Origin: Haliangiales bacterium
GTDB taxonomy: Bacteria; Myxococcota_A; Polyangia; Haliangiales; SHYZ01
Assembly: GCA_035259575.1 (NCBI GenBank)
Contig: DATFWE010000042.1
Coordinates: forward strand, 4,882 to 68,881
DNA length: 64,000 bases
Direction of reading: 5' to 3'
Shown: positions 4,652 to 56,834 of the stretch, piece by piece
How the letters are laid out: every line of letters begins with the position of its first letter
Numbering within the stretch: position 1 is the stretch's first letter
Program-made: the position numbers and the translations under genes
The notes under the pieces: model-generated
The model's input: the letters and a program-made list of their open reading frames with translations, nothing else
What the model was told of the DNA's origin: nothing
The model's database searches: none

Positions 4652-6006
4652 GGGCGCGGCCCCAGGAAGCGCGCCTCGAGCACGCGGGTCTCGCCGCCCG
4701 CGGACACGCGGATGGGCACGCGCCTCTCACCGCGGAATTGCGCGCGCGGCACGATCATGAACACCGGGGCGTGCGCGTCGGCCATCGGCTCGAGCGCGAT
4801 CTCCGCCATCGGCACGACGAAGCTCATCCCCGGCGAGGTCTCGGGCGCGATGGTGAACGTCGCCGGCTCGGCCTTCTTGTTGACGAGGTGGATCTCGAAC
4901 GAGTTCGTGACCTTCTCGGCGTCGACGACGAACGGCAGGCCGCGGGTGCGGAGGAGGTTCGCCTCGAAGCCGGCGCGGCCGGCGAGCGCCAGCGCCGCCG
5001 CCACGATCGCCGCGCCGAAGACGGCGAGATAGAGGTAAAGGCGCGGGCGCAGGACTCGTTTGCGCTTCCCGTCGAGCCCGTTGAGCGAGTCGTAGCGGAT
5101 CAGGCCCCGCTTGCGCCCGATCTTGACCATGATCTCGTCGCAGGCGTCGATGCAGGCGGTGCAGGCGATGCAGTCGAGCTGGAGGCCGTTGCGGATGTCG
5201 ATGCCGGTGGGGCACACGACGACGCAGCGTTTGCAGTCGACGCAGTCCCCGGCTCCGGCGGCGCCGAGCTTGCCCCGCGGCTCCCCCCGCGCGGCGTCGT
5301 AGCCGATGACGAGCGAGTCCTTGTCGAGGAGCACCGCCTGCAGCCGGCCGTACGGGCACACGCCGATGCATAGCTGCTCGCGGAAGAACGCGAAGTTGAG
5401 GTACAGCGCCGCGGTGGTCGCGGCGGCGACCGCGAACGCCTCGGGGTGGGCCGCCGGCGATCCTTGCACCATCTGGAACAATCCGGGGAGCGAGGCGAAG
5501 TAGGCGAGGAAGACGTGCGCCAGGACGAACGAGATGGCGACCCACGCGGCGTGGGTAGCGGCCTTGCGCCAGACGCGATCCCACGTCCACGCTCCTGCGT
5601 CGCGGCGCATGCGCCTCTCGCGCGGGCCCTGGAGCCAGCGTTCGACGCGGCGGTACACGCCGTCGAGGAACACCGTCTGCGGGCACGCCCATCCGCACCA
5701 CACCCGCCCCAGGAGCGCAGTCGCCACGAACAGGACGAACCCGACGCCGAGGAGGACCACCAGCATCATCCAGATGTCCTGGGCGTTGAACGTCGCGCCG
5801 AAGAGGTGGAAGTGGCGCCGCGGGATGTCGATGAACACGGCAGGATGGCCGCCGATGCGGATCCACGGCAGGGCCACGTAGACGCCGATCAGCGCCGCGA
5901 ACGTCCATCGCCGGGCCGTCGCGAACCGCCCCGTCACGTCCGCGGGGTAGACGAACTTCCGGTGCCCGTCGGGGAGGAGCGAGCTCGCGGCGCCGTCGGG
6001 GATCAT
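4648..6006 (-). CDS. ccoG: cbb3 oxidase accessory 4Fe-4S protein CcoG/FixG
   Basis: CGWACPQ, CIGVCPYG, CVDCKRCVVVCP and CIACTACIDAC motifs; start ATG 6006 overlaps the ccoP stop. Confidence 0.93.
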   Translation of the reverse strand: MIPDGAASSLLPDGHRKFVYPADVTGRFATARRWTFAALIGVYVALPWIRIGGHPAVFIDIPRRHFHLFGATFNAQDIWMMLVVLLGVGFVLFVATALLGRVWCGWACPQTVFLDGVYRRVERWLQGPRERRMRRDAGAWTWDRVWRKAATHAAWVAISFVLAHVFLAYFASLPGLFQMVQGSPAAHPEAFAVAAATTAALYLNFAFFREQLCIGVCPYGRLQAVLLDKDSLVIGYDAARGEPRGKLGAAGAGDCVDCKRCVVVCPTGIDIRNGLQLDCIACTACIDACDEIMVKIGRKRGLIRYDSLNGLDGKRKRVLRPRLYLYLAVFGAAIVAAALALAGRAGFEANLLRTRGLPFVVDAEKVTNSFEIHLVNKKAEPATFTIAPETSPGMSFVVPMAEIALEPMADAHAPVFMIVPRAQFRGERRVPIRVSAGGETRVLEARFLGPRP

Positions 6007-6723: not shown

Positions 6724-9032
6724 GGCGCACCTCCGGCCTGGGCCACGCTCTTGGGCGCGACGGTGTCGTCGGGCGGCAGCGATTTCTTCCCCAGGCTCTG
6801 CAGATAGGCGACCAGCGCGACGAGCTCGCTGTCGGGGGCCACGGCGATCCCGCTCTGGGCGAGATCCGCGGCGATGCCGGCGCCCTGCGCCCGCGCGTCG
6901 TCGCCGGCGGACGCGACCTCGGCCGCGTCGTAGGGGACGCCGAGCATCCGCATCACGCCGAGCTTCGAGCGGGTGCGCCCGAGGTCGACGCGGCCGTCGG
7001 CGAGGAACGCGTAGGGCGGCATGTTGGAGCCCGGCGACGTCGACCGCGGGTCGAGGAGGTGCTGGTAGTGCCACAGGTTGGGGTACTTGCCGCCGACGCG
7101 CGCGAGATCGGGTCCGGTGCGCTTGGACCCCCACTGGAACGGGTGGTCGAAGGCGGAGTCGGCGAGCTGGGACCGATCGCCGTAGCGCTGCGTCTCGAAG
7201 CGCATCGGGCGGATCATCTGCGAGTGGCAGGTGTAGCAGCCCTCGCGCAGGTAGATGTCGCGCCCCTCGAGCTCGAGCGGCGTGTACGGGTGCGTCTGGC
7301 CGGGCGGACCGTCGGTCTTGGCGATGACCACCGACGGCACGATCTCCGCCACGCCGCCGACGAGGATGGCGATCAGCGTGAACACGGTGAACAGCAGCGG
7401 CCGCCCTTCGAGCAGCCGGTGCAGCCCGGCGCTGCCGCCGGACAGCTTGATCGCCCAGAACCCGACCAGGCCCACGAACCCCGCCAGCATGAGGAAGCCG
7501 AGCGCGCCGATCGTGTCGAGGAAGCCGACGGCGATCGCCAGGCTCCCCACGATGCCGACCAGGACGAGCGGCGGGGCGAAGACGATCTTCTTCCACGACG
7601 GCTCCGCCGCGCGAGCGAGCGGGACCACCTCGACCACGCCGTCGACCGCCTTGCCGGCGCGCGCCGTCTTCCACAGGTTCCACGCCATCACGCCCATGCC
7701 GGCGAGGTACATCGCCCCGCCGACGACGCGCACGATGTACATCGGGCGGATCGCGGCGAGCGTCTCGACGAAGTTGGGGTACATGAGGCCGCCGCCGTCG
7801 CCCTGCGCGCGCCACATCATGCCCTGCGTCACGCCCGACACCCACATCGCCACGACGTAGAGCAGGATGCCGATCGTCCCCAGGTAGAAGTGCGCCTCCG
7901 CCGCGGGCTTCGAGTAGAGCTTGGTGCCGAAGAGGCGCGGCACCATCCAGTAGAACATCCCGGCGGCCATGAAGCCGTTCCACCCCAGCGCCCCGGAGTG
8001 CACGTGCCCGATGATCCAGTCGGTGTAGTGCGCCAGCGACGATACGCTCTTGATCGACAGGAGTGGCCCCTCGAACGTCGCCATGCCGTAGAACGTCACC
8101 CCGGCGACGAAGAACTTGAGCACCGGGTCCTGGCGGACCTTGTCCCACGCGCCGCGGAGCGTCAGCAGCCCGTTCAGCATGCCGCCCCAGCTCGGCGCCC
8201 ACAGCATGACCGAGAACACCATGCCGAGCGTCTGCGCCCAGTCGGGGAGCGCAGTGTTCAGCAGGTGGTGCGGGCCCGCCCAGATGTACACGAAGATGAG
8301 CGCCCAGAAGTGGACGATCGACAGGCGGTAGGAGTAGACCGGCCGGTCGGCAGCCTTGGGCAGGTAGTAGTACATGATGCCGAGCACCGGCGTGGTGAGG
8401 AAGAACGCCACCGCGTTGTGCCCGTACCACCACTGCACCAGCGCGTCCTGCGCCCCGGCGAAGATGGAATAGCTCTTGAGCGCCGACAGCGGCAGCGACA
8501 GGCTGTTCACCACGTGCAGCACCGCCACCGTCACGATCGTCGAGATGTAGAACCAGAGCGCCACGTAGAGGTGCTTCTCGTTGCGCCGGGCGAGGGTCCA
8601 GAAGAAGTTGATCGCGAACGTCACCCACACCACCGCGATGGCGACGTCGATGGGCCACTCCAGCTCGGCGTACTCCTTGCCCTGCGTGAAGCCGAGGGGG
8701 AGCGTGATCGCCGCGGCGAGGATGATCGCCTGCCACCCCCAGAAATGGATCGCCGCCAGCTTGTCCGACGCGATGCGCGCCTTGAGCAGGCGCTGCGTCG
8801 AGTAGTAGATGCCGGCGAAGATCATGTTGCCGACGAACGCGAAGATGACCGCGTTGGTGTGGAGCGGGCGGAGGCGGCCGAAGCTCAGCCAGGGGGCCGC
8901 ATTCGCCTGGGGAAACGCCAGCTGCACGGCGACGACGATGCCCACGAGGAGGCCGACGAGCCCCCACCCCACCGAGGCGGCGATGAACTGTCGGCTGATC
9001 TTGTCGTTGTAGACGACCTTAACGGTGGCCAT
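6720..9032 (-). CDS. ccoN: Fused cbb3-type cytochrome c oxidase subunit I/II (CcoN-CcoO)
   Basis: LRPLHTNAVIFAF, HNAVAFFLT, WAGPHHL and HVHSGALGW in CcoN; EGCYTCHSQMIRP, WGSKRTGPDL and SNMP in CcoO. Confidence 0.97.
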   Translation of the reverse strand: MATVKVVYNDKISRQFIAASVGWGLVGLLVGIVVAVQLAFPQANAAPWLSFGRLRPLHTNAVIFAFVGNMIFAGIYYSTQRLLKARIASDKLAAIHFWGWQAIILAAAITLPLGFTQGKEYAELEWPIDVAIAVVWVTFAINFFWTLARRNEKHLYVALWFYISTIVTVAVLHVVNSLSLPLSALKSYSIFAGAQDALVQWWYGHNAVAFFLTTPVLGIMYYYLPKAADRPVYSYRLSIVHFWALIFVYIWAGPHHLLNTALPDWAQTLGMVFSVMLWAPSWGGMLNGLLTLRGAWDKVRQDPVLKFFVAGVTFYGMATFEGPLLSIKSVSSLAHYTDWIIGHVHSGALGWNGFMAAGMFYWMVPRLFGTKLYSKPAAEAHFYLGTIGILLYVVAMWVSGVTQGMMWRAQGDGGGLMYPNFVETLAAIRPMYIVRVVGGAMYLAGMGVMAWNLWKTARAGKAVDGVVEVVPLARAAEPSWKKIVFAPPLVLVGIVGSLAIAVGFLDTIGALGFLMLAGFVGLVGFWAIKLSGGSAGLHRLLEGRPLLFTVFTLIAILVGGVAEIVPSVVIAKTDGPPGQTHPYTPLELEGRDIYLREGCYTCHSQMIRPMRFETQRYGDRSQLADSAFDHPFQWGSKRTGPDLARVGGKYPNLWHYQHLLDPRSTSPGSNMPPYAFLADGRVDLGRTRSKLGVMRMLGVPYDAAEVASAGDDARAQGAGIAADLAQSGIAVAPDSELVALVAYLQSLGKKSLPPDDTVAPKSVAQAGGAP

Positions 9033-9183
9033 GGGTCTCCTCGGTTTTTTCGTCGCGTAGGGGAAACAGGGACAGGCGATCGGCGTGCTCGTGGTCGCGC
9101 TGCTTCATGCTGAAGCCGAAAAGGAGGATCGAGCCGGCGACGAGCATCAGGCTCACGAACACCTGGAGGATCACGACCGCCAT
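9019..9183 (-). CDS. ccoS: cbb3 oxidase maturation protein CcoS/FixS (54 aa; not separately listed in the ORF track)
   Basis: MAVVILQVFVSLMLVAGSILLFGFSMKQRDHEHADRLSLFPLRDE; one TM helix, between ccoI and ccoN, overlapping both. Confidence 0.8.
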   Translation of the reverse strand: MAVVILQVFVSLMLVAGSILLFGFSMKQRDHEHADRLSLFPLRDEKTEETHGHR

Positions 9184-11492
9184 AGACGACTCCGCCGCGA
9201 CAGCGATGCAACCGTCGCGCCGATCACGGTGAGCGAGCTCGCGGGCATGAGCACGGCGCACAAAAGGGGCGACATCAGGCCGGCGTAGGCCAGCGCGACG
9301 GCACCCACGTTGTAGGTGACGGCGATGGCAAGATTGGTGCGCACCACGCGGGCGAGGCGGCGCGCCGCATCCAGCGCGAGCCGCACCGGGCGCAGGCCGG
9401 GCGACGTGAACCAGAAATCGGAGCGCGCGGGCATGAACGGCCGGTCGATGGCGGGCGTGCCCGAACAGGTCGCCTGGTCGGCGGCGAGGCTGTCGTTGAT
9501 GCCGTCGCCGATGAACAGGACGTCGCCGCGGTCGTTCGCGCGGAGCCACGCCGCCTTGGCCGACGGGGTCTGTCCGCCGAGCGCGCGCGCCGCCGGAATG
9601 CCCAGCGCCCGCGCCTGGTCGGCCACGCGCGCGGGCGAGTCGCCCGACAGGATCCACACCTCGTAGCGGCCGGCGGCGAGCCGCCGCGCCTCGTCGGCGG
9701 CGTCGGGGCGGAGCTCCTCCACGGTCTCGAGCGGGATGGGCGGCGCGCCGGCCGCGGAGAACCCGGCGGCGTCGAGCCGGTAGACGCGGCCGCCGCGAGT
9801 CAGCTCGACGCCGCGCCCGGGCTCCTCGACGACCACGAGGCCGTCGACGAAGCGGTGCGCCCCGGCGTCCTCGAGCGCGCGTCGCACCGCCGCGGCCCTG
9901 GGGTGGGAGCTACGCGCGGCGAGGTTGTAGAGCGCCTCGCGCGCGTCGCCGTCGAGGGCGGCGAGGGCCGTCGGGTCGGCGAGGCGCAGGGACCCCGTCG
10001 TGAGCGTGCCCGTCTTGTCGAACACCACCCGCCGCACCGCGGCGGCGCGGTCGAGGAACCCGCCGGCGCGCACGTACAGGCCGTGGCGGCGCAGCCCCGC
10101 CTGGGCGAGCTCGTAGGCGAGGGGCGTGGCGATCCCCAGCGCGCACGGGCAGGTGACGATGAGCACCGCGGCGGTGACCGCGAGCGCGCGGCCGGCGTCC
10201 CCGGTCGCGAACGCCCATCCGCCGAACGCCCCCGCGGCGAGCGCGAGCACCGCGATGACGTACCAGCGGGCGAGGCGGCGCCAGAACGCCGTCGCCCGCG
10301 GCAGCTCGGTCTCGCGCCGCGTCGACTTCTCGAGGAGGGGCAGGAGCGTGGACGCGGCGAACGGGCCGGCGGCGCGGGCGGCCGCCGCGTGCGCGGACGC
10401 GTTGAACGCGCCCGCCGGGATGGTGTCTCCGCGGGCGAACGCGCGCGGGGCGCTCTCTCCGGTGATCCAGTCGAGCGAGAACGTGGCGGCCTCGGCGTCG
10501 AGCGCGGCGTCGACGGGGCAGAGGTCGCCCGGCGCGAGGAGTAGGCGATCGCCCTCGCGGAGCTCGGCGCAGCGCACGATCGCCACGCGGTCGCGGTCCA
10601 CGCGGCGGACGAGGAGCTCATCCGCGCCGTCGGCGGCGAGGAGCTGGCGGCGGTTCTTCTCGAGGACGCGCTCCTGCAGGAACCGGCCGAGGAGCATGAG
10701 GGCGATGAAGACGGTGAGCGTGTCGAAGTAGGTGGCGTCGCCGCGATGGGCGACGAACGACAGCGTGGACGAAGCGAACGCGAGGAGGATCCCCAAGGCG
10801 ATGGGGAGGTCGAGGTGGAAGAGCCCGCGGCGCAGCGCCTCCCACGCCGAGCGGAAGAAGACCGGGCCGCCCACCAGCACGGCCGCGGCGGCGAGCGCGA
10901 AGTTGAGGTCCCGGAACATGCGGTAGATCGGCCCGGCGCGGAGCCCGGCGTAGGTCGCGATGCCGAAAATCATCGCGTTCATGGCCAGGGCGACGCACAC
11001 GCCCAGGCGCCAGAGGAGGTCGCGCGAGCCGGTCGGCGCGTCGGGCTTGCGCGCCGGGCCGAGGCGATAGCCGAACCGCTCGATGTCCGTCACCAGCTCG
11101 CCGAGGGGAAACTCCGGCGCGACGGTGAGCGACAGCGTGCCGAGCGCCGGGTTCACGACGATGTCGAGCGCCCCGCGGTCTCGCCGGCGCGCGAACATCT
11201 GCTCGATCAGCCACACGCACGCGGCGCAGCGGATGCCCTGGACGTCGAGGCTGAGGCGCTGGACCGGCCCGCCGGCGGCGAGGCGCTCCGCCGCGAGCGC
11301 CACCCACTTGTGGTCGGCCGGCGCCTCGGCGGCGGTCGCCGGCACGCCCACCGCGCCGCCGAGCTCGTAGTAGCGGTCGAGACCCTCGCTGCGGATGAGG
11401 TGGTACACCGTCTCGCACCCGCGGCAGCAGAAGGATCCGGCGCTGGGCGTGCCGCAGTGCAGGCAGGCGACCGCGCAGGACGACGAAATCAT
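9171..11492 (-). CDS. ccoI: P1B-type Cu-ATPase CcoI/FixI
   Basis: N-terminal CLHCG..FCCRGC, CAAC metal domain, CPC, DKTGTLT and GDGINDS. Start placed at ATG 11492, downstream of a sigma54-like element. Confidence 0.93.
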   Translation of the reverse strand: MISSSCAVACLHCGTPSAGSFCCRGCETVYHLIRSEGLDRYYELGGAVGVPATAAEAPADHKWVALAAERLAAGGPVQRLSLDVQGIRCAACVWLIEQMFARRRDRGALDIVVNPALGTLSLTVAPEFPLGELVTDIERFGYRLGPARKPDAPTGSRDLLWRLGVCVALAMNAMIFGIATYAGLRAGPIYRMFRDLNFALAAAAVLVGGPVFFRSAWEALRRGLFHLDLPIALGILLAFASSTLSFVAHRGDATYFDTLTVFIALMLLGRFLQERVLEKNRRQLLAADGADELLVRRVDRDRVAIVRCAELREGDRLLLAPGDLCPVDAALDAEAATFSLDWITGESAPRAFARGDTIPAGAFNASAHAAAARAAGPFAASTLLPLLEKSTRRETELPRATAFWRRLARWYVIAVLALAAGAFGGWAFATGDAGRALAVTAAVLIVTCPCALGIATPLAYELAQAGLRRHGLYVRAGGFLDRAAAVRRVVFDKTGTLTTGSLRLADPTALAALDGDAREALYNLAARSSHPRAAAVRRALEDAGAHRFVDGLVVVEEPGRGVELTRGGRVYRLDAAGFSAAGAPPIPLETVEELRPDAADEARRLAAGRYEVWILSGDSPARVADQARALGIPAARALGGQTPSAKAAWLRANDRGDVLFIGDGINDSLAADQATCSGTPAIDRPFMPARSDFWFTSPGLRPVRLALDAARRLARVVRTNLAIAVTYNVGAVALAYAGLMSPLLCAVLMPASSLTVIGATVASLSRRSRLWRS

Positions 11493-47240: not shown

Positions 47241-47338
47241 GCTCTTCCCGTCTTTCTCCATCGCGTGGCACGATGTGCAGTAGGCGACGCTCTTGGAGTG
47301 CTCGACGTGCGCGTTGGTCCCCATGAACGCAATGAACA
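47241..47338 (-). pseudogene. 98-bp relic of a NapC/NirT-like cytochrome gene
   Basis: Ungapped match to 26933-27030, 85/98 identical by manual count; encodes FIAFMGTNAHVEHSKSVAYCTSCHAMEKDGKS. Confidence 0.85.
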
Positions 47339-47339
47339 C

Positions 47340-48614
47340 TTGCGCGGCCGCGTCGCTTTCGTCGCGGTCGCGGTGGCCGTCGTGGCGTCGGCCTGCGACG
47401 GCCCGCGCGGGCCGGAGGCGCGGGGCGTGACGGCGTCCCCCCAGGCCCCGGGCCGCGACGATCGCGAGCGCCGCGACCAGGCGGCGGCGCTGATGCTGCG
47501 CTTCGCGGAGCGCACGGGGCTCACGTCAGCGCGAGCGGAGCGGCGCTACCTGTGGACGGATGCGTTCGCCGTGTGCAACTTCCTCGGCCTCGCGCGCGCG
47601 ACCGGGGAAGCGCGCTACACCGAGCTCGCGCTGCGGCTGATCGATCGCGTGCATCACACCCTCGGGAAGCATCGCGCCGACGATGCGCGCACGGGCTGGC
47701 TGAGCGGCCTGTCCGCGCAGGACGGCGAGGCGCACCCCACCCGCGGCGGCCTGCGCATCGGCAAGGAGCTGCCCGAGCGCCGCCCGGACCAGCCGTTCGA
47801 CGAGCGGCTGGAATGGGAGCGCGACGGCCAGTACTTCCATTACCTCACCCAGTGGATGCACGCGCTCGATCGCGCGGCACGAGCGACCGCCACGCCGCGA
47901 TTCAATCGGTGGGGGCGCGAGCTGGCGGAGACGGCGCGCGCCGCGTTCGCCCACGGCGCGCGGGGCACCTCGCTCCGACGCATGTACTGGAAGATGAGCA
48001 TCGACCTCGGGCGGCCGCTCGTGCCGTCGATGGGCCAGCACGACGCGCTCGATGGGTACGTCGCGTGCGCCGAGCTGCGGGCGACCGCGGCGGCGTCGGG
48101 GGAGCCGGCTGCGGGTCCGACGCCGCCCACGCTAGAAGACGAAGCCCGGGACTTCGCCCGGATGATCGACGTCGACAACCTGGCGACGGCCGACCCGCTG
48201 GGGATCGGGGGCCTCCTGGTCGACGCCCATCGCCTGGATCGGCTCGTCCGCCGCGGAGCCGGTGCGGACGGCGGCCTGCGCGATCGGCTGCTCGGCGCGG
48301 CGATCGCGGGGCTGGAGCAGTACGCGCGGGCCGGCGACCTCGGGCGCCCCGCCGAGCGACGCCTCGCGTTTCGCGAGCTCGGGCTCGCGATCGGGCTTCA
48401 CGCGGTCGCGGCGATGCGGCGCGGGGCGACGGACGAACCGGAGCGCAGGCTCCTCGAGGCGCTGCGCCCCTACGATAGGCTGGCCGACGACGTCATCGCC
48501 TTCTGGCTCGAGCCCGAGCACCAGAGATCGTCGACGTTCGTGGAGCACGAAGACATCAACGAGGTCATGCTGGCGACCGCGCTCGCGCCCGAGGGATTCC
48601 TCGGCGAGCTCTGA
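47340..48614 (+). CDS. Conserved-looking hypothetical protein, possible lipoprotein
   Basis: RYLWTDAFAV, GGLRIGK, RDGQYFHYL.QWMHAL and HEDINEVMLATAL blocks; TTG 47340 gives MRGRVAFVAVAVAVVASAC. Start uncertain. Confidence 0.7.
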   Translation: MRGRVAFVAVAVAVVASACDGPRGPEARGVTASPQAPGRDDRERRDQAAALMLRFAERTGLTSARAERRYLWTDAFAVCNFLGLARATGEARYTELALRLIDRVHHTLGKHRADDARTGWLSGLSAQDGEAHPTRGGLRIGKELPERRPDQPFDERLEWERDGQYFHYLTQWMHALDRAARATATPRFNRWGRELAETARAAFAHGARGTSLRRMYWKMSIDLGRPLVPSMGQHDALDGYVACAELRATAAASGEPAAGPTPPTLEDEARDFARMIDVDNLATADPLGIGGLLVDAHRLDRLVRRGAGADGGLRDRLLGAAIAGLEQYARAGDLGRPAERRLAFRELGLAIGLHAVAAMRRGATDEPERRLLEALRPYDRLADDVIAFWLEPEHQRSSTFVEHEDINEVMLATALAPEGFLGEL

Positions 48615-48716
48615 AGAGCGCTCCGTCACATAGAGTGCTCGGCAGGCAAAAGGTTACGGCGTCCGCGTGTAACCGATCGCCGTCGGCAGACTCCGTTCAT
48701 GCGAAGGAGGAATCGC

Positions 48717-50072
48717 ATGTCCATCCGTCCTTTGGCCAAATTCGGGGGGTGCGTGACGCTGTGCATGGCCATGGCGTGCACCGGCGCGTCCGCGCCGATC
48801 GGCGATCAGGGCGCCGCCGAGGGGTCCGACAAGACCGGCGAGCCCGATTCGGTTCGCCAGGCCGCCCTGGCGATGATCCGCGAGGGCCGGCACACGTTCC
48901 GCTTCGACACCTTCGGCGACGAGGCGTTCTGGGGCGACACGCTCCGGTTGCATCAGGCGATCGCCGGCGCCGCGAACGGCGGCGTCGGTCCCGGCGTCAG
49001 CCCCGCCGCGGCGCTCGGTCTCGGCCTGAAGGTCGACGTAGAGGCGCTGCCGCGCGAGCTGCGGGTTGCAATTCGCAATGGGCAAGTGGATCTGAACGAC
49101 CCGGCCACGACCGTCGCGCTGCTCCGCCTGAATGCCGTCGTGGGGGTCACCGGCTTCTTCGCCGGCGACGGAACGCTGCGCTCCATGGGCATCCAGTGTG
49201 CGCTTTGCCACTCCACCGTCGACGACTCGTTCGCGCCGGGCATCGGGCGCCGCCTCGACGGCTGGGCCAACCGCGACCTCAATGTGGGCGCGATCGTCGC
49301 GGCCGCGCCCGACCTGTCGGTCGTCGCGAGCCTTCTCGGCACCGATCAGGCGACCGTGCGCACGGTGCTGCACTCGTGGGGGCCCGGCAAGTTCGACGCC
49401 GAGCTCTTCATGGACGGCAAGGCCTTCCGCCCCGACGGCGGCTCGGCGGCCACGCTCATCCCGCCGGCGTTCGGCCTCGCCGGCGTGAACCTGCACACGT
49501 GGACCGGTTGGGGCTCGGTCACGCACTGGAACGCGTTCGTCGCCAACCTCGAGATGCACGGCAAGGGGACCTTCTTCGACCCGCGCCTCGACGACACGAG
49601 CCGGTTCCCCATCGCGGCCGCGAACGGCTTCGGTCACGTGACGATCGCCGAGAACGAGGACCGCATCACCCCGCGGCTGCCGGCGCTGCATTTCTTCCAG
49701 CTCGCGTTGCGCGCGCCGCGGCCGCCGGAAGGCAGCTTCGACGAGGATGCCGCCGAGCGCGGCGGTGCGGTGTTCTCGGGCAAGGCGCGCTGCGCGAGCT
49801 GCCACGTCCGGCCGCTCACCACCGAGCCCGGCTGGAACATGCACACCGCGCAGGAGGTCGGCATCGACGAATTCCAGGCCGACCGCGCGCCCGACCGGCG
49901 CTATCGCACTACGCCCCTGCGCGGCCTGTGGACCCACCAGAAGGGCGGCTTCTACCACGACGGCCGCTTCGCGACGCTGCTCGACGTCGTGAACCACTAC
50001 AACTCGTTCATGGCCCTGGGCCTCACCGACACCGAGAAGCAGGAGCTCGTCGAGTTCATGAAGTCGCTATGA
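48717..50072 (+). CDS. Di-heme c-type cytochrome lipoprotein with a CCP/MauG-like C-terminus
   Basis: AAGGAGG SD; MAMAC lipobox; CALCH and CASCH; YRTTPLRGL..FYHDGRFATLLDVVNHY. Confidence 0.8.
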   Translation: MSIRPLAKFGGCVTLCMAMACTGASAPIGDQGAAEGSDKTGEPDSVRQAALAMIREGRHTFRFDTFGDEAFWGDTLRLHQAIAGAANGGVGPGVSPAAALGLGLKVDVEALPRELRVAIRNGQVDLNDPATTVALLRLNAVVGVTGFFAGDGTLRSMGIQCALCHSTVDDSFAPGIGRRLDGWANRDLNVGAIVAAAPDLSVVASLLGTDQATVRTVLHSWGPGKFDAELFMDGKAFRPDGGSAATLIPPAFGLAGVNLHTWTGWGSVTHWNAFVANLEMHGKGTFFDPRLDDTSRFPIAAANGFGHVTIAENEDRITPRLPALHFFQLALRAPRPPEGSFDEDAAERGGAVFSGKARCASCHVRPLTTEPGWNMHTAQEVGIDEFQADRAPDRRYRTTPLRGLWTHQKGGFYHDGRFATLLDVVNHYNSFMALGLTDTEKQELVEFMKSL

Positions 50073-52167: not shown

Positions 52168-54042
52168 TCAGGGCGCGCCCGACGCGCCCGCCCGTTCCGC
52201 GCGCACGCGCTCGCGGAAGTCGGCCTCGTCCTCCGCGATCATCTTCGTCCAGCCGTCGGGATCGTAGAGCGGGTGCGGGCGGACCGCGGCGCGGATCTTG
52301 TCGACGCGCCCCTCGAACAGCTCCTGGGGGTGCATCGTCAGGTAGATGTCGGGCTTGAGCTTCTTCAGGCGGGCGAAGCTCTGCAACGTGTCCTCGACGA
52401 GGCGCGGAAACTTCGGATTGCCCACGAGCTTGACGCCGACGTTCGGCCCCGCGCACGCGTAGAACGCAACCGCATACGACTCCTTGCCGTCCTGCACGCG
52501 AGTCGTCCACACCGTGCAGCCGGGCGTGTGTCCCGGCGCCCACACCGCGCGCAGCGTGGTTCCGCCCAGCGTCACCGTGTCGCCGTCGGCCAGCACCCGG
52601 TCGACGTGGACCGGGTCCCACCCCTCGTCGCCCAGCGGCGAGCGGTCCGTGCCCGACGCCAGCGCCGCCGCGTCGTCGCGGAGCGCCATCACGCGCGCGC
52701 CCGTCGCCCGTTGCATCGCCGCGTGCCCCTGCACGTGGTCGAAGTGCGCGTGACCCGACAGCATGATCTTGATGTCGCGCAGCTTGAACCCCAGCTTCTC
52801 GATGCTGCCGCGGACGACCGGCTCCATCTCCCGCGTGCCGGTGTCGAGGAGGATGTGGCCCTCGGGCGTGACGATGAGGTAGGAGGCGATGTTCCGCGCG
52901 CCGACGTAGTAGATGTTGCCGACGATGCGGAACGGCTCGACCGCGGCGCTGGCCGGGCCGTGGAGCTCCGCGCTGACGCCCGGTTTGAGGACTCCGTGGG
53001 GATGGTCGCGGTAGTGCTGCTCGAGCCAGTGGGCGCCGAAATCGCCCCCCGCCTCGTCGAGCGCGTGCCACACCGAGTGTACGTGCGTCGCATCCTGCTG
53101 CGTATTGTCGTACTCGTAGACGAACGTCGGCCCCTTCACGCGGTAGTAATGGGGCTGCCCCGGCGCGGCGCCGCCGGCCCAGGTGAAGACGACGCGGTCG
53201 AGTCCCTTTTCGGCGATGCGCGCGCGCTCGCGCTCGGCGAGCTCGCGCGGCAGGTTGGCGACCGCCTCGTCGATGAGCGCGGCGAGGATCGCGCGCTGCG
53301 GCTCGGTCATCCGCGCCGCGGGAAGCCCCGGCAGGTCGCCGCCGCTCGCGCCCGGCCCGGTGAGGATGTCGCGCGGAGCGGCGACCTGATAGATCGCCTG
53401 GGCGCGCGACGCCCCGTCCAGGCTGGCCAGCAGGCGGAAGCCGAGGTCCTCCTCGTCGGCGAGCACGCGCATCCCGCCGAGGAACTCGCCGGTCACGCGC
53501 GTCGGCGACGCGCCGAAGAACGCCGGCGCCTCGACCGGGCGAACCCCGTCGACGAGAGTGAGGTTGAGCGACAGGTGGTGCCCCTCCAGCCGCCAGCCCC
53601 ATGTCGCCGTCGTCGACGGCTCGCCGAACACCGCCAGGTAGTACGCGCCCGGGTCGCGGCCGGGATCGTTGTGCTCGCGCCGCCGCAGCACCTCCTCGAG
53701 CGCCATGATCCCCGTGGCCTTGAGAAATCCCTGCCGGCTGAGCGCGGTGGACAGGAACGCGTAGGCCAGGTGCCGCTGCGCCGTGTCGAGCGTGCCGAGC
53801 GCGATCCCGCGCCGCGGCTTGGGGACGTAGTGCCAGCGCTGCCGCTCGGCGTCGTCGACCGCGAACGCGGCCCGCGCCCGCTGCGCGGGCTTGAGCGACG
53901 ACAGGAAGCGCCGGGCCGCCTCGACCATGTCCGCGGACAGCACCTTCTCGTCGCGATCGCGGTCGTGTACGGGCTCGTGCGCCGCCGATTGCGCGGCCGC
54001 GAGGCACAGGGTCACCAGGAATCCACGTCGCATGGCGTTCAT
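52168..54042 (-). CDS. Secreted DUF3500-domain protein fused to a subclass B3 metallo-beta-lactamase domain
   Basis: Signal peptide; WHYVP, WGWRLEGHHLSLN and EYDNTQ..HVHSVW (DUF3500); EPFRIVGNIYYVG, LLDTG, HAHFDH, GHTPGC and MHP (B3 MBL). Confidence 0.85.
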   Translation of the reverse strand: MNAMRRGFLVTLCLAAAQSAAHEPVHDRDRDEKVLSADMVEAARRFLSSLKPAQRARAAFAVDDAERQRWHYVPKPRRGIALGTLDTAQRHLAYAFLSTALSRQGFLKATGIMALEEVLRRREHNDPGRDPGAYYLAVFGEPSTTATWGWRLEGHHLSLNLTLVDGVRPVEAPAFFGASPTRVTGEFLGGMRVLADEEDLGFRLLASLDGASRAQAIYQVAAPRDILTGPGASGGDLPGLPAARMTEPQRAILAALIDEAVANLPRELAERERARIAEKGLDRVVFTWAGGAAPGQPHYYRVKGPTFVYEYDNTQQDATHVHSVWHALDEAGGDFGAHWLEQHYRDHPHGVLKPGVSAELHGPASAAVEPFRIVGNIYYVGARNIASYLIVTPEGHILLDTGTREMEPVVRGSIEKLGFKLRDIKIMLSGHAHFDHVQGHAAMQRATGARVMALRDDAAALASGTDRSPLGDEGWDPVHVDRVLADGDTVTLGGTTLRAVWAPGHTPGCTVWTTRVQDGKESYAVAFYACAGPNVGVKLVGNPKFPRLVEDTLQSFARLKKLKPDIYLTMHPQELFEGRVDKIRAAVRPHPLYDPDGWTKMIAEDEADFRERVRAERAGASGAP

Positions 54043-54070
54043 GGTGGCGTCGCGGCGGGGCGCGGTCCAA

Positions 54071-54098
54071 TTGATAGATTCGATGCCATCGATAGAAT
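54071..54098 (+). promoter_or_regulatory. LysR promoter and T-N11-A operator
   Basis: TTGATA-N16-TAGAAT; perfect palindrome TCGATG-C-CATCGA at 54080-54092. Confidence 0.62.
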
Positions 54099-54104
54099 GG
54101 CTTT

Positions 54105-55004
54105 ATGGACCCGGATCCGCGCTATCTCCACACGTTCCTCGTCGTCGGTCGCGAGCGCAGCTTCAGCCGCGCGGCGGCGATCCTGCACCGGACCCAGCCG
54201 GCGGTGAGCTACCAGATCCGGCGGCTGGAGCAGCAACTCGGCACGAGCCTCCTCGACCGCACCAGCCGGCACGCCAGCCTCACCCGCGCGGGACAGCAGC
54301 TCCACGATTTCTGCCAGCGGTTCTTCGACGAGCTCGAGCGGCTGCAGACGGCGCTGCGCTCCGGCTCGGCGATGGCGCTCGAGACGCTGCGCATCGCGTC
54401 GGTCAGCGGGTTCGGCCGATACGTCCTGTTCCCGCTGCTCGCGCGCCTGCCCGACCTGCCCTACTCGCTGCGCTTCCCCACCGCCGACCAGGTGTTCGCC
54501 GCGCTCGAGGACGGGGAATGCGACGTCGGTTTCGTGTACCTGCCGCGCGTGTCGAGCCGCCTCCTCACCGCGCCGGTGTGGCGTGAGGAGCTGGTGCTCG
54601 TGGCGCCGGGCGGCGGCCGCGGCCGGCGCATGCCGCAGCAGCTGCCCGGGTTCGAGGCCCTGTCCTTCGTCACCTACGACGAGAGCGAGTACGTCTTCGG
54701 CAAGTGGTTCGAAGCGCTGTTCGGACGCCAGCCGCGCGTGCTGCGCAGCCGGTACCATTTCGAGGAGCTCGAGGAGGTGGTGAGCACCGTCGCCGCGGGG
54801 CGGGGCTGGTCGATCGTCCCCGACCATGCGGTCGCCCAGGCCGCGCGCCGCGGCGACGTCGCGATCCTCCGCCACCCGCGCCGCCGCGTGCGCAACCTCA
54901 TCTACGCGGTGACGCGCGCCAACGCCCCCGCCCACCCGGCGGCGACGCACGTCATCGACGCGCTGCGCGCCGCCCGGCCGCGTTCTGTCTCGGGTTTTCG
55001 CTGA
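54105..55004 (+). CDS. LysR-family regulator
   Basis: RSFSRAAAILHRTQPAVSYQIRRLEQQLG..LLDR; divergent from the MBL fusion gene. Confidence 0.93.
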   Translation: MDPDPRYLHTFLVVGRERSFSRAAAILHRTQPAVSYQIRRLEQQLGTSLLDRTSRHASLTRAGQQLHDFCQRFFDELERLQTALRSGSAMALETLRIASVSGFGRYVLFPLLARLPDLPYSLRFPTADQVFAALEDGECDVGFVYLPRVSSRLLTAPVWREELVLVAPGGGRGRRMPQQLPGFEALSFVTYDESEYVFGKWFEALFGRQPRVLRSRYHFEELEEVVSTVAAGRGWSIVPDHAVAQAARRGDVAILRHPRRRVRNLIYAVTRANAPAHPAATHVIDALRAARPRSVSGFR

Positions 55005-55013
55005 CCGGCACGT

Positions 55014-56714
55014 CTAATCGTCGTCGCCGTTGCGGCGGAGGATCTCCCACGTCGCGTTGTCGCCGTGCTGCTGGGTGAAGAAGACGCGCCAGCCGTCGCG
55101 GAACGGCCGCGGGATGCTCGCGCCGAGGAGGCCGTCCCGGCCGGGATCCCCGTTGGACACGTGGATGCCGGTGATCTCGTTGTCGCCGTCGTTCTGGAAG
55201 CCGGGTGAGCCCGACAGCGCCGAGTCGATCGTCGCCGACGGATCGCGGCCCTCGGCGATGATCCGGATCGGCGCGTGGCTCGGGTCGGAGTAGTCGACGC
55301 GGACGTCGAACAGGAACGCCGAATCGAGGGCGTTGTGCTGGGTATGGAGCGTGTCGCCGCGGTCCTCGACGAAGACGATGCGATTCGCGTCCCAGAACGC
55401 GACGTTGTCGAAGCCGGCGTGGTCGAGATCGCCGCGGTAGAATAGGGCGAGGGTGCCGTGGTCGGCGGACGGCTCGGACTGGGTCAGCACGAACACGCCG
55501 CCGAAGCCGCCGAAGCCCGACCCGGCCTCGGTGAGCGCGTTGGTGTCGCCGGTTTCGTCGAAGAAGAAGCGGCGGAAGCCCGAGCCGGGCTGGAATTGGC
55601 CGTTCTCGGGCCGCTTGAACGGCGTCGCCAGCTTGGCCTTGGCGAGCGCATTGGCGCTGTACGGCGCGGTGCCGTCGACGGCGGTGTCGTGGAGGGTGAC
55701 CCAGTGGGTCTCGAACACCTTGCCGTAGGTGTGCAGGTCCCCGACGTCGGGCGACAGGATGTCGGCGTCCGCCTGGCCGGCGTGGAACGCGATCGGCTGG
55801 CCGGTCCGGAGGGAGATCACCTGGAGCGCCTGAAGCTTGCCTTCCTTCAGGTTCCCCGGATCGCCGGGGACGTACCGGTAGATGAAGCTGTTGGGCTGGC
55901 GCGCGCGGCGGTTCACGGTGCCGGTCGGTCCGCCGACGTCCTCGACGATCCACACGTTTCCGTCCGAATCGTTCTGGATGCCCTCGTAGCCGCCGCGGCC
56001 GACCGCGCCGGAGATGTCCTCGACCTGCGACGGGAAATCGAGCGTCGCCTGCCACACGCCCCCGTTGGCGCCGGCCTCGAACGTGAACAGCAGTCGCCGG
56101 GCGAACGGATCCCAGGTCGATCCGTCGAAGGTGGGAATGCGGTTGCCCGCGACGTCGTGGGAGGCGAGCAGCGTCACCCGGTGCAAGTCGTCGGCGTCGA
56201 GGTTGATGCGCGAGATGAAGCCCACGCCGCGGGCGCCATTCTCGTGTCCCTGGAACAGGAAGTGACGCCCGTAGTCGTAGCCGGGGTCGGCGCCGTGCTG
56301 GCCGCGCAGGACGAGATAGGTGTTCTTGTCGGGCTCCGTCTTGGTCGCCTCGACGTTGTGCGTCGCGGACTGCACGTCGCCCGGCGCCGGCAGCATCGGG
56401 CCGTTGCCGTTGTAGCCGTAGTGGGTGAGGTCGACCGTCGTGCCGTCGGCGAGCGTGACCCTGGCCGGGTTCTCCAGGGGGGTCGAACCCTGCGCCACCG
56501 CGGTGGCGAAGAGCTCGGGGGAATACACGTTCGGGGACGTGACGCCGGGGCTCTTGGTGTTCGCGGCGGCCACAGGCGTCAAGCCCACCCCGTCCTCGTC
56601 GCGGCCGCGGTCCTCGGCGGAGATCGCGCCGACGCCCTCCGTCGGGCGGGGGGGCTCGGACGAGCAGGCGGTCGCGAGCAGCAGGGACAAGGACACCAGT
56701 CGATGGATTCGCAT
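55014..56714 (-). CDS. PhoX-like (DUF839) alkaline phosphatase family lipoprotein
   Basis: AAGGAGG SD; LATAC lipobox; GHEN, YEG, IVED, FKRPEN, FDNV, VED, EITG and QH beta-propeller motifs. Confidence 0.7.
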   Translation of the reverse strand: MRIHRLVSLSLLLATACSSEPPRPTEGVGAISAEDRGRDEDGVGLTPVAAANTKSPGVTSPNVYSPELFATAVAQGSTPLENPARVTLADGTTVDLTHYGYNGNGPMLPAPGDVQSATHNVEATKTEPDKNTYLVLRGQHGADPGYDYGRHFLFQGHENGARGVGFISRINLDADDLHRVTLLASHDVAGNRIPTFDGSTWDPFARRLLFTFEAGANGGVWQATLDFPSQVEDISGAVGRGGYEGIQNDSDGNVWIVEDVGGPTGTVNRRARQPNSFIYRYVPGDPGNLKEGKLQALQVISLRTGQPIAFHAGQADADILSPDVGDLHTYGKVFETHWVTLHDTAVDGTAPYSANALAKAKLATPFKRPENGQFQPGSGFRRFFFDETGDTNALTEAGSGFGGFGGVFVLTQSEPSADHGTLALFYRGDLDHAGFDNVAFWDANRIVFVEDRGDTLHTQHNALDSAFLFDVRVDYSDPSHAPIRIIAEGRDPSATIDSALSGSPGFQNDGDNEITGIHVSNGDPGRDGLLGASIPRPFRDGWRVFFTQQHGDNATWEILRRNGDDD

Positions 56715-56834
56715 CGGACACCTCCTTGGAAGCCCTTCCGTCAGGCGGGGCACGTGTACGCCCCACGCGGACCGGCGGCAAACCACATTCCGGAAACGAA
56801 TCGTCGACGGACGGGGTGCAGACCACCCCTTGAT

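Follow-up and report, generated by a model that had tools for sequence, protein, structure and literature searches.

A DUF3500–subclass B3 metallo-beta-lactamase fusion gene beside a divergent LysR-type regulator in a Haliangiales bacterium, a candidate exported two-step enzyme

The gene described here joins a DUF3500 domain to a subclass B3 metallo-beta-lactamase (MBL) in one protein and lies beside a divergent LysR-type regulator gene in a 64,000-nucleotide stretch of DNA from a Haliangiales bacterium (contig DATFWE010000042.1, positions 4,882 to 68,881; hereafter the window). The B3 half resembles FEZ-1 (PDB 1l9y) and BJP-1 (PDB 2gmn/3lvz), with which it has in common the fold, the HxHxDH...H196...H263 di-zinc site and, by prediction, export; BJP-1 also carries a cysteine pair (GHxPGC ... 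FFC) at positions matching a probable disulfide of the fusion. Unlike these two enzymes, the fusion has a 350-residue N-terminal DUF3500 domain where they have a bare signal peptide, an Ala or Cys at the Ser221 position, control by a LysR protein that is not of the AmpR type, and a beta-lactamase activity that is only predicted. The B3 enzymes MIM-1 and MIM-2 exhibit both beta-lactamase and N-acyl homoserine lactone (AHL) lactonase activity (PMC7392888), and their hydrolysis of lactams and lactones alike shows that lactone chemistry is open to a canonical B3 site. Unlike the fusion, they are single-domain proteins without a DUF3500 partner, and they are not close to it (the NCBIfam MIM model scores 120 bits here).

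For the DUF3500 half, the sole solved relative is ApmL/Amc20 (PDB 9x86, released 2026-04-08), a "dehydratase in amipurimycin biosynthesis" according to its PDB title. ApmL and the fusion have the EGHH, HYY, EYDNT and HxHSVW motifs in common, but ApmL, a tailoring enzyme from a nucleoside-antibiotic cluster of Streptomyces, stands alone and is cytoplasmic, whereas the DUF3500 domain described here is apparently exported and forms a fusion or an operon with a B3 enzyme. Deletion of AN10530, a fungal DUF3500 gene, causes 1,2,3,5-tetrahydroxybenzene to accumulate, and its authors propose a new ring-cleavage enzyme, with 5-hydroxydienelactone as the next intermediate (bioRxiv 10.1101/2023.06.06.543907). 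The AN10530 step in this tetrahydroxybenzene (gallate) pathway lies upstream of a lactone that is converted by a separate protein, which parallels the logic of a DUF3500 enzyme followed by a hydrolase; AN10530 itself is eukaryotic and cytoplasmic, and it is clustered with a monooxygenase and a fumarylacetoacetate hydrolase (FAH)-like hydrolase, not with an MBL. With a solved homolog and fungal genetics available, DUF3500 is no longer wholly the unknown domain that it was called in the preliminary description of this locus. The layout of the regulator has counterparts in the AmpR-AmpC and the CatR/ClcR/BenM/CbnR-type operons, which likewise feature a divergent LysR gene, a T-N11-A box and a box placed over the regulator's own promoter; unlike AmpR-AmpC, the LysR protein of the window has no specific AmpR similarity.

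The reading preferred here, which is held tentatively, is that the locus encodes a LysR-controlled, exported two-step enzyme, in which DUF3500 acts first as a hydro-lyase or ring-opening enzyme and the B3 half then carries out a zinc-dependent opening of a lactone or lactam. The source genome is a soil metagenome-assembled genome (MAG) of 6.8 Mb that is 92% complete and myxobacterium-like, and the fusion is the only DUF3500 protein and the only B3-grade MBL that it encodes. The window has a G+C content of about 70% and contains many long open reading frames (ORFs) that overlap on both strands; among the overlapping ORFs at this locus, Pfam domain support is limited to the frame at 52168..54042(-). 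The gene is composed as follows.

52168..54042, minus strand: DUF3500-B3 fusion gene, 624 amino acids, coordinates including the stop codon
53980..54042, minus strand: predicted Sec signal peptide, residues 1 to ~21, MNAMRRGFLVTLCLAAAQSAA followed by HE (sequence inspection)
53035..53937, minus strand: DUF3500/ApmL-like domain, residues 36-336 (Pfam, PDB 9x86 match, AlphaFold2 (AF2)/Foldseek)
52948..53034, minus strand: His-rich DUF3500 tail and linker, residues 337-365, ending in HYRDHPHGVLKPGVSAELHGPASAA (alignments; low predicted local distance difference test score (pLDDT))
52198..52947, minus strand: subclass B3 MBL domain, residues 366-615 (NF033105, FEZ-1/BJP-1 matches)

The database gene call places the start three codons downstream, giving a protein of 621 amino acids. 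Signal or lipobox leaders are found at the equivalent N-terminal position in the fused homologs, many of which are lipoproteins, and the fusion protein looks like an exported, periplasmic one. The His-rich segment HVHSVWH...HYRDHPH is present in the protein, and a search of the linker DNA for in-frame ATG, GTG or TTG codons identified none.

The B3 half contains a Lactamase_B domain (PF00753) at residues 381-571 (Pfam, E 2.7e-17) and scores 264 bits with the NCBIfam model NF033105 (bla_subclass_B3), whose cut-off is 240; this match spans residues 366-615 of the protein and positions 4-256 of the 257 in the profile. All six zinc ligands are present, namely H431, H433, D435 and H436 (HAHFDH), H505 (GHTPG) and H571 (MHP), and they are invariant in 24 fused homologs. 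Alignment with FEZ-1 (E 6e-52) and BJP-1 (E 1e-49), at 38-40% identity over ~250 residues, assigns H431/H433/H505 to Zn1 (H116-H118-H196) and D435/H436/H571 to Zn2 (D120-H121-H263); the Zn2 site thus has the H121 ligand of B3 enzymes instead of the C221 of B1/B2. C509 (GHTPGC) and C531 (YAC) occupy the alignment columns of the BJP-1 cysteines; clades have either both or neither of them, and the two probably form a disulfide. The position of Ser221, a residue that is typical but not strictly defining for B3, holds Ala or Cys by alignment (FEZ-1 'GSIG' versus 'ACAG') and varies across the fused clades. Ser221 reportedly contacts the substrate in FEZ-1 and L1, and the S221A change in FEZ-1 is said to lower mainly carbapenem hydrolysis (Mercuri and co-workers, 2004), so its replacement is not disqualifying. 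The B3 half very probably hydrolyses beta-lactams in vitro.

The DUF3500 domain (PF12006) spans residues 36-336, where Pfam matches positions 5-296 of a 297-position profile at E 5.3e-80. Its AF2 model, built with a deeper alignment, has a pLDDT of 87.9 and a predicted template modelling score (pTM) of 0.86. Foldseek analysis of this model against the PDB returned 9x86 (E 6e-24, TM-score 0.71 by query and 0.89 by target, 35% identity) and nothing else below E 0.1, and phmmer matched DUF3500 to 9x86 with E 9e-56. The residues invariant in the domain include E153, H156, H298, E310, D312, N313, H320 and H322, and the cluster of EGHH, PHYY, EYDNTQ and HxHxVW motifs is invariant in the 24 fused and in 34 mixed DUF3500 sequences. 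ApmL has equivalents of E153/H155/H156, H298, E310/D312/N313 and H320/H322. The architecture given in the preliminary description, a 624-amino acid ORF with a signal peptide, a full DUF3500 domain ending in a His-rich segment, a linker free of internal starts and an intact B3 domain with its six canonical ligands, therefore agrees with the ORF list, the Pfam and NCBIfam matches and the alignments, its signal peptide being a Sec-like N-terminus judged by inspection only.

The two halves also occur as separate genes, since three relatives (L012, L089 and the P0041 contig) carry DUF3500 and MBL as a two-gene pair. L012 shares its contig with G070:C22; its DUF3500 protein has the C-terminus ...HYRNHSHGAQR*, the stop codon overlaps the MBL start (ATGA), and the B3 MBL gene begins with its own lipoprotein-like leader, MIRIMILFLATLGC. 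L089 (G019) has adjacent DUF3500 and B3 MBL genes arranged as in L012, with the likewise lipoprotein-like MBL leader MIRLLLMTIALAGC, and on the P0041 contig (JGI soil) the order is LysR, DUF3500 (347 amino acids) and Lactamase_B (294 amino acids). In L012 and L089, the two pairs with DNA, inspection finds an export leader on both genes, and a stop codon followed by the leader of the MBL stands where the fused protein has its linker. Because both halves have export leaders when they are separate, the module would work outside the cytoplasm. The preliminary description regarded homologs made of two genes as a sign against a fusion; that arrangement does exist in some relatives, and it leaves the fusion standing. 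The split operons are an unfused counterpart and therefore strengthen the functional link between the halves, and the fused and split forms together point to cooperation of the DUF3500 and B3 domains. The link from DUF3500 to lactam or lactone hydrolysis that was claimed earlier gains support from the conservation of both forms.

The split and fused modules also have a LysR gene in common. The regulator of the window and its control region have the following features.

54105..55004, plus strand: LysR-type regulator, 299 amino acids, HTH_1 and LysR_substrate domains (Pfam)
54043..54104, unstranded: divergent control region, 62 bp, intergenic
54080..54092, unstranded: candidate LysR box, a perfect T-N11-A palindrome TCGATGCCATCGA (TCGATG-C-CATCGA), in the spacer of the LysR promoter
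54071..54098, plus strand: sigma-70-like LysR promoter TTGATA-16-TAGAAT, 10 of 12 positions (promoter scan)

Both L012 and L089 have, divergent to the split module, a LysR ortholog with 60-61% identity; the fused L107 (P0002, the closest fused homolog, 72% identity) and the split P0041 contig likewise have a divergent gene of the LysR family. With its HTH_1 and LysR_substrate domains, divergent layout and T-N11-A box, the protein has the features expected of a LysR-type transcriptional regulator (LTTR) and is a generic one, and all of the top 25 NCBIfam LTTR models fall below their own cut-offs. The solved proteins closest to it are CbbR, OxyR, CatM, BenM and CbnR (E 1e-9 to 1e-18) and a motility repressor, and no AmpR similarity is found among the PDB matches at E<=1e-5 or the top 25 NCBIfam matches. 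On this ground, an AmpR-like induction was considered and rejected.

The promoter scan of the control region identified one strong sigma-70-like promoter, that of LysR. Its -10 hexamer ends 6 nt ahead of the LysR ATG (54071-54107), and the LysR mRNA may be leaderless. A perfect palindrome has an estimated chance expectation of ~0.01 in 62 bp, and its position within the promoter spacer fits the classical autoregulation layout of LTTRs. A palindrome conserved between loci was considered and rejected, as the perfect TCGATGnCATCGA occurs in the window only; the orthologous regions keep the promoter hexamers instead, the -35 and -10 of LysR being exactly the conserved blocks of the four orthologous intergenic regions and kept in L107, L012 and L089. 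The divergent LysR gene and its perfect T-N11-A palindrome are thus where they had been reported, and the likeness to inducible beta-lactamase loci that had been drawn from them needs correcting, the regulator not being AmpR-like and the palindrome not being conserved in the orthologous regions.

The history of the association differs between the two halves. In the DUF3500 tree, the MBL-linked halves form one clade (support 100/100). The MBL halves fall into three tree groups, namely a split clade, the window clade (WIN, P0002, P0003) and a big fused clade, and scattered between these groups stand MBL-only genes of Acidobacteriota, Polyangia, Gemmatimonadota and Pseudomonadota. Under the approximately unbiased (AU) test, neither the linked MBL halves (p 0.00025) nor the fused MBL halves (p 0.006) can be kept in a single clade, a result that is indicative only, the groups having been named after the tree was seen. 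A single origin of the fusion is disfavoured by the same rejections, with the same reservation, and the MBL halves appear to come from at least two B3 lineages. With monophyletic DUF3500 halves and MBL halves from several B3 lineages, the association seems to have been made or renewed more than once, and such repetition speaks more strongly for functional coupling than one fusion event would.

Both domains have other partners as well. Fusions of DUF3500 elsewhere include an alpha/beta-hydrolase esterase (BD-FAE/Abhydrolase_3, also with a dienelactone-hydrolase-family match), a SnoaL-like domain, a 3-keto-disaccharide hydrolase, TonB_C and TPR repeats, and could help to define the chemistry of the family.

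Database proteins P0226 (esterase), P0243, P0148, P0194, P0126 and P0145: DUF3500 with other partners

DUF3500 is thus joined time and again to hydrolases whose folds are unrelated. B3 domains of the window's clades are in turn found fused to a BD-FAE esterase or an SBP_bac_11 partner (P0066, P0068, P0078). These esterase (BD-FAE/Abhydrolase_3)-B3 and solute-binding protein (SBP)-B3 fusions resemble the window fusion in having a related B3 domain joined to an exported partner, and differ from it in the partner, which is either an alpha/beta-hydrolase or a solute-binding protein in place of DUF3500. The three pairings DUF3500-MBL, DUF3500-esterase and esterase-MBL were considered as strong evidence of one pathway; that argument is weakened by the esterases of P0226 (DUF3500-esterase) and P0068 (esterase-B3), which are only 24% identical. 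Three Acidobacteriota/Terriglobia loci (L060-L062) have ~1.7-kb matches and may be further fusions.

In the proposed two-step mechanism, both halves would act in one pathway, on one small molecule, in the periplasm. DUF3500 would probably be a metal-dependent hydro-lyase or ring-opening enzyme using its Glu/His/Asp cluster, and it would either make the substrate of B3 hydrolysis or consume its product. The order in which DUF3500 comes first and yields a lactone-type intermediate is preferred because loss of the fungal DUF3500 blocks tetrahydroxybenzene breakdown upstream of the dienelactone. The B3 half would act as a di-zinc hydrolase on a lactone or lactam, opening the cyclic ester or amide. 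The LysR protein, bound over its own promoter, would most likely switch the fusion gene on in the presence of the substrate or an intermediate. We infer the DUF3500 chemistry, which step comes first, and what the substrate and the inducer are; the mechanism finds some support in the nearest solved relatives of LysR, which include the aromatic-catabolism regulators CatM, BenM and CbnR.

Several observations weigh against this mechanism. Stand-alone DUF3500 genes are nested in the big fused clade (P0059, for example, stands beside P0020), and look-ups found them to be truly without an MBL. Because such genes nest inside the fused clade, the MBL half appears to have been lost repeatedly, and DUF3500 does not strictly need an MBL. 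Between the MBL half and stand-alone B3 genes of Acidobacteriota and Polyangia the identity reaches 74-76%; this closeness and the equivalog match argue for an ordinary environmental B3 function, possibly beta-lactam hydrolysis, and against one adapted specially to DUF3500. The AF2 model of the full-length fusion gave no confident inter-domain geometry (pTM 0.49). In the open literature, no paper describing the ApmL reaction was found, so that the term dehydratase rests on the PDB title; AN10530 is implicated in ring cleavage through genetics, from the accumulation of a metabolite, and is cytoplasmic where the fusion is exported. No genes of catabolism, such as FAH, maleylacetate reductase or transporter genes, flank the fusion in the window, and none of the RNA runs searched contain the fusion gene.

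The strongest rival is that the locus encodes a plain inducible B3 beta-lactamase for resistance or detoxification, induced by beta-lactams through LysR, with DUF3500 either processing the opened antibiotic or being a passenger. This is possible and is considered less likely than the two-step enzyme. It gains from the equivalog-type match to NF033105 above its cut-off together with the six ligands, from the 38-40% identity to FEZ-1 and BJP-1 as proven beta-lactamases, from the predicted export, which is common to all B3 enzymes, and from the position of the protein as the only B3 MBL of its genome. The close MBL-only relatives are moreover ordinary environmental B3 genes, and LysR-controlled beta-lactamases exist, as in AmpR-AmpC and L1/L2 of Stenotrophomonas. 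The regulator of the window, however, has no AmpR match in the PDB (E<=1e-5) or among the top NCBIfam matches, the Ser221 position is Ala/Cys and variable in the family, and no penicillin-binding protein, amidase or similar beta-lactam-related neighbours were found. A plain beta-lactamase also leaves unexplained why one DUF3500 clade is found with different B3 lineages and why DUF3500 is paired with esterases elsewhere. A dedicated role of the fusion in beta-lactam resistance is regarded as doubtful, and the earlier suggestion of an unrecognised resistance determinant was overstated, NCBI already labelling homologs as 'subclass B3 metallo-beta-lactamase'.

The two-step enzyme can be extended in two directions, which even taken jointly are speculative and have the smaller share of the probability. 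Environmental B3 enzymes may have a native, non-antibiotic job as the ring-hydrolysing second step in the periplasm, after a new DUF3500/ApmL-fold metal-dependent ring-opening enzyme or dehydratase, with beta-lactam hydrolysis as a side activity. The mirror image is that DUF3500 would further degrade beta-lactams opened by the MBL, which would make the protein a two-step antibiotic-destruction machine.

It is much less probable that DUF3500 is non-enzymatic, a His-rich domain that captures zinc and delivers it to the B3 half, or anchors that half, in a metal-poor periplasm. The conserved His-rich motifs EGHH, PHYY, HVHSVWH and HYRDHPH would suit such a role, MBLs require zinc loading in the periplasm, and many fused homologs are lipoproteins. 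ApmL, however, a protein deposited under the name dehydratase and not associated with an MBL, has the same His/Glu/Asp residues, and so do hundreds of stand-alone DUF3500 proteins without an MBL partner. The domain is a confidently predicted globular fold of 300 residues, large for a metallochaperone, and the fungal deletion phenotype is metabolic.

The fusion itself is real and conserved and is no assembly artefact. An independently assembled Logan contig of 3285 nt at depth 12 covers the whole fusion gene with 0 differences, and soil contigs from other samples (52860-53010 and 52951-53200) span the linker unchanged and without indels; the read check of the junction proposed in the preliminary description thereby upholds a single ORF. 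PF12006 and PF00753 occur in one protein in ~38 homolog clusters (clustering at 90% identity) with 54-72% identity, and the linker is alignable across the fused homologs. That two adjacent genes were read as one through a frameshift, or that the contig is chimeric, is hardly credible: some relatives do carry two genes and the window comes from a MAG, but the contigs from several samples and the ~38 independent clusters with a single ORF and an alignable linker rule it out, and the internal signal peptide of the split MBL genes is missing from the fused protein.

The fused homologs come mostly from Kofleriaceae MAGs, and those that NCBI names carry the label Kofleriaceae. In a set of 1.84 billion proteins clustered at 50%, the fused family has a single full-length representative left, and the phylogenetic spread of the architecture is thus narrow. 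NCBI names for the fused homologs already include 'subclass B3 metallo-beta-lactamase', a pipeline label that hides the probable second catalytic domain. In L088 (G081:C53, 557-3489(-)) the DUF3500 part is intact and the MBL core is deleted between 'IASYLIATSQGLI' and 'FAGKIARLRAG' with the frame broken, which points either to decay of a fusion gene or to misassembly of the MAG.

No description of the fusion architecture, its split-operon counterpart or the regulator was found in the literature searched, nothing usable was found on PF12006 or on B3 enzymes in Kofleriaceae, and a 2023 review of B3 enzymes does not mention fusions. Both domains are known and fused proteins are already in databases; it is the description of the architecture that was not found in the literature. 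Environmental B3 MBLs are abundant in soil bacteria, and the fusion is a rare clue to, and a testable handle on, their native substrate. Here a canonical B3 domain is tied to one partner in three ways that are independent of each other, by covalent fusion, by a two-gene operon and by a shared regulator, and DUF3500, an orphan fold whose one structure is very recent, is placed in a two-step context with a hydrolase. Should the B3 half be an efficient beta-lactamase, the gene would be a resistance-type gene of unusual architecture.

Beyond the LysR gene, the neighbours of the family vary. The fused genes of L001 and L003, from the large Kofleriaceae fused clade, are without LysR and have a VOC/Glyoxalase_4 gene directly upstream (L001 ~5460-5873(+)). 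An SRPBCC 'polyketide cyclase' gene follows the split MBL of L012 (7929-8381(+)), and a SnoaL gene precedes the stand-alone DUF3500 of L101 (460-1014(+)); small-molecule-enzyme genes thus recur beside members of the MBL-linked DUF3500 clade (L001/L003, L012, L101). Just downstream of the fused gene, L001 contains a ~1.5-kb segment (7831-9540(+)) that is missing from the syntenic L003 and is possibly a small mobile insertion; its protein product matches HNH and RuvA_C weakly.

In the window, the locus is flanked by two ORFs with zero Pfam matches, one of 590 amino acids with a hydrophobic N-terminal leader (55014-56786(-)) and one of 449 amino acids (47265-48614(+)). The 457-amino acid protein encoded at 48699-50072(+) contains two CxxCH haem-binding motifs, CALCH and CASCH, and has only a weak Cytochrome_CBB3 match. 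It resembles a divergent di-haem cytochrome c, and its gene is followed on the same strand by two short-chain dehydrogenase/reductase (SDR) genes and DoxX.

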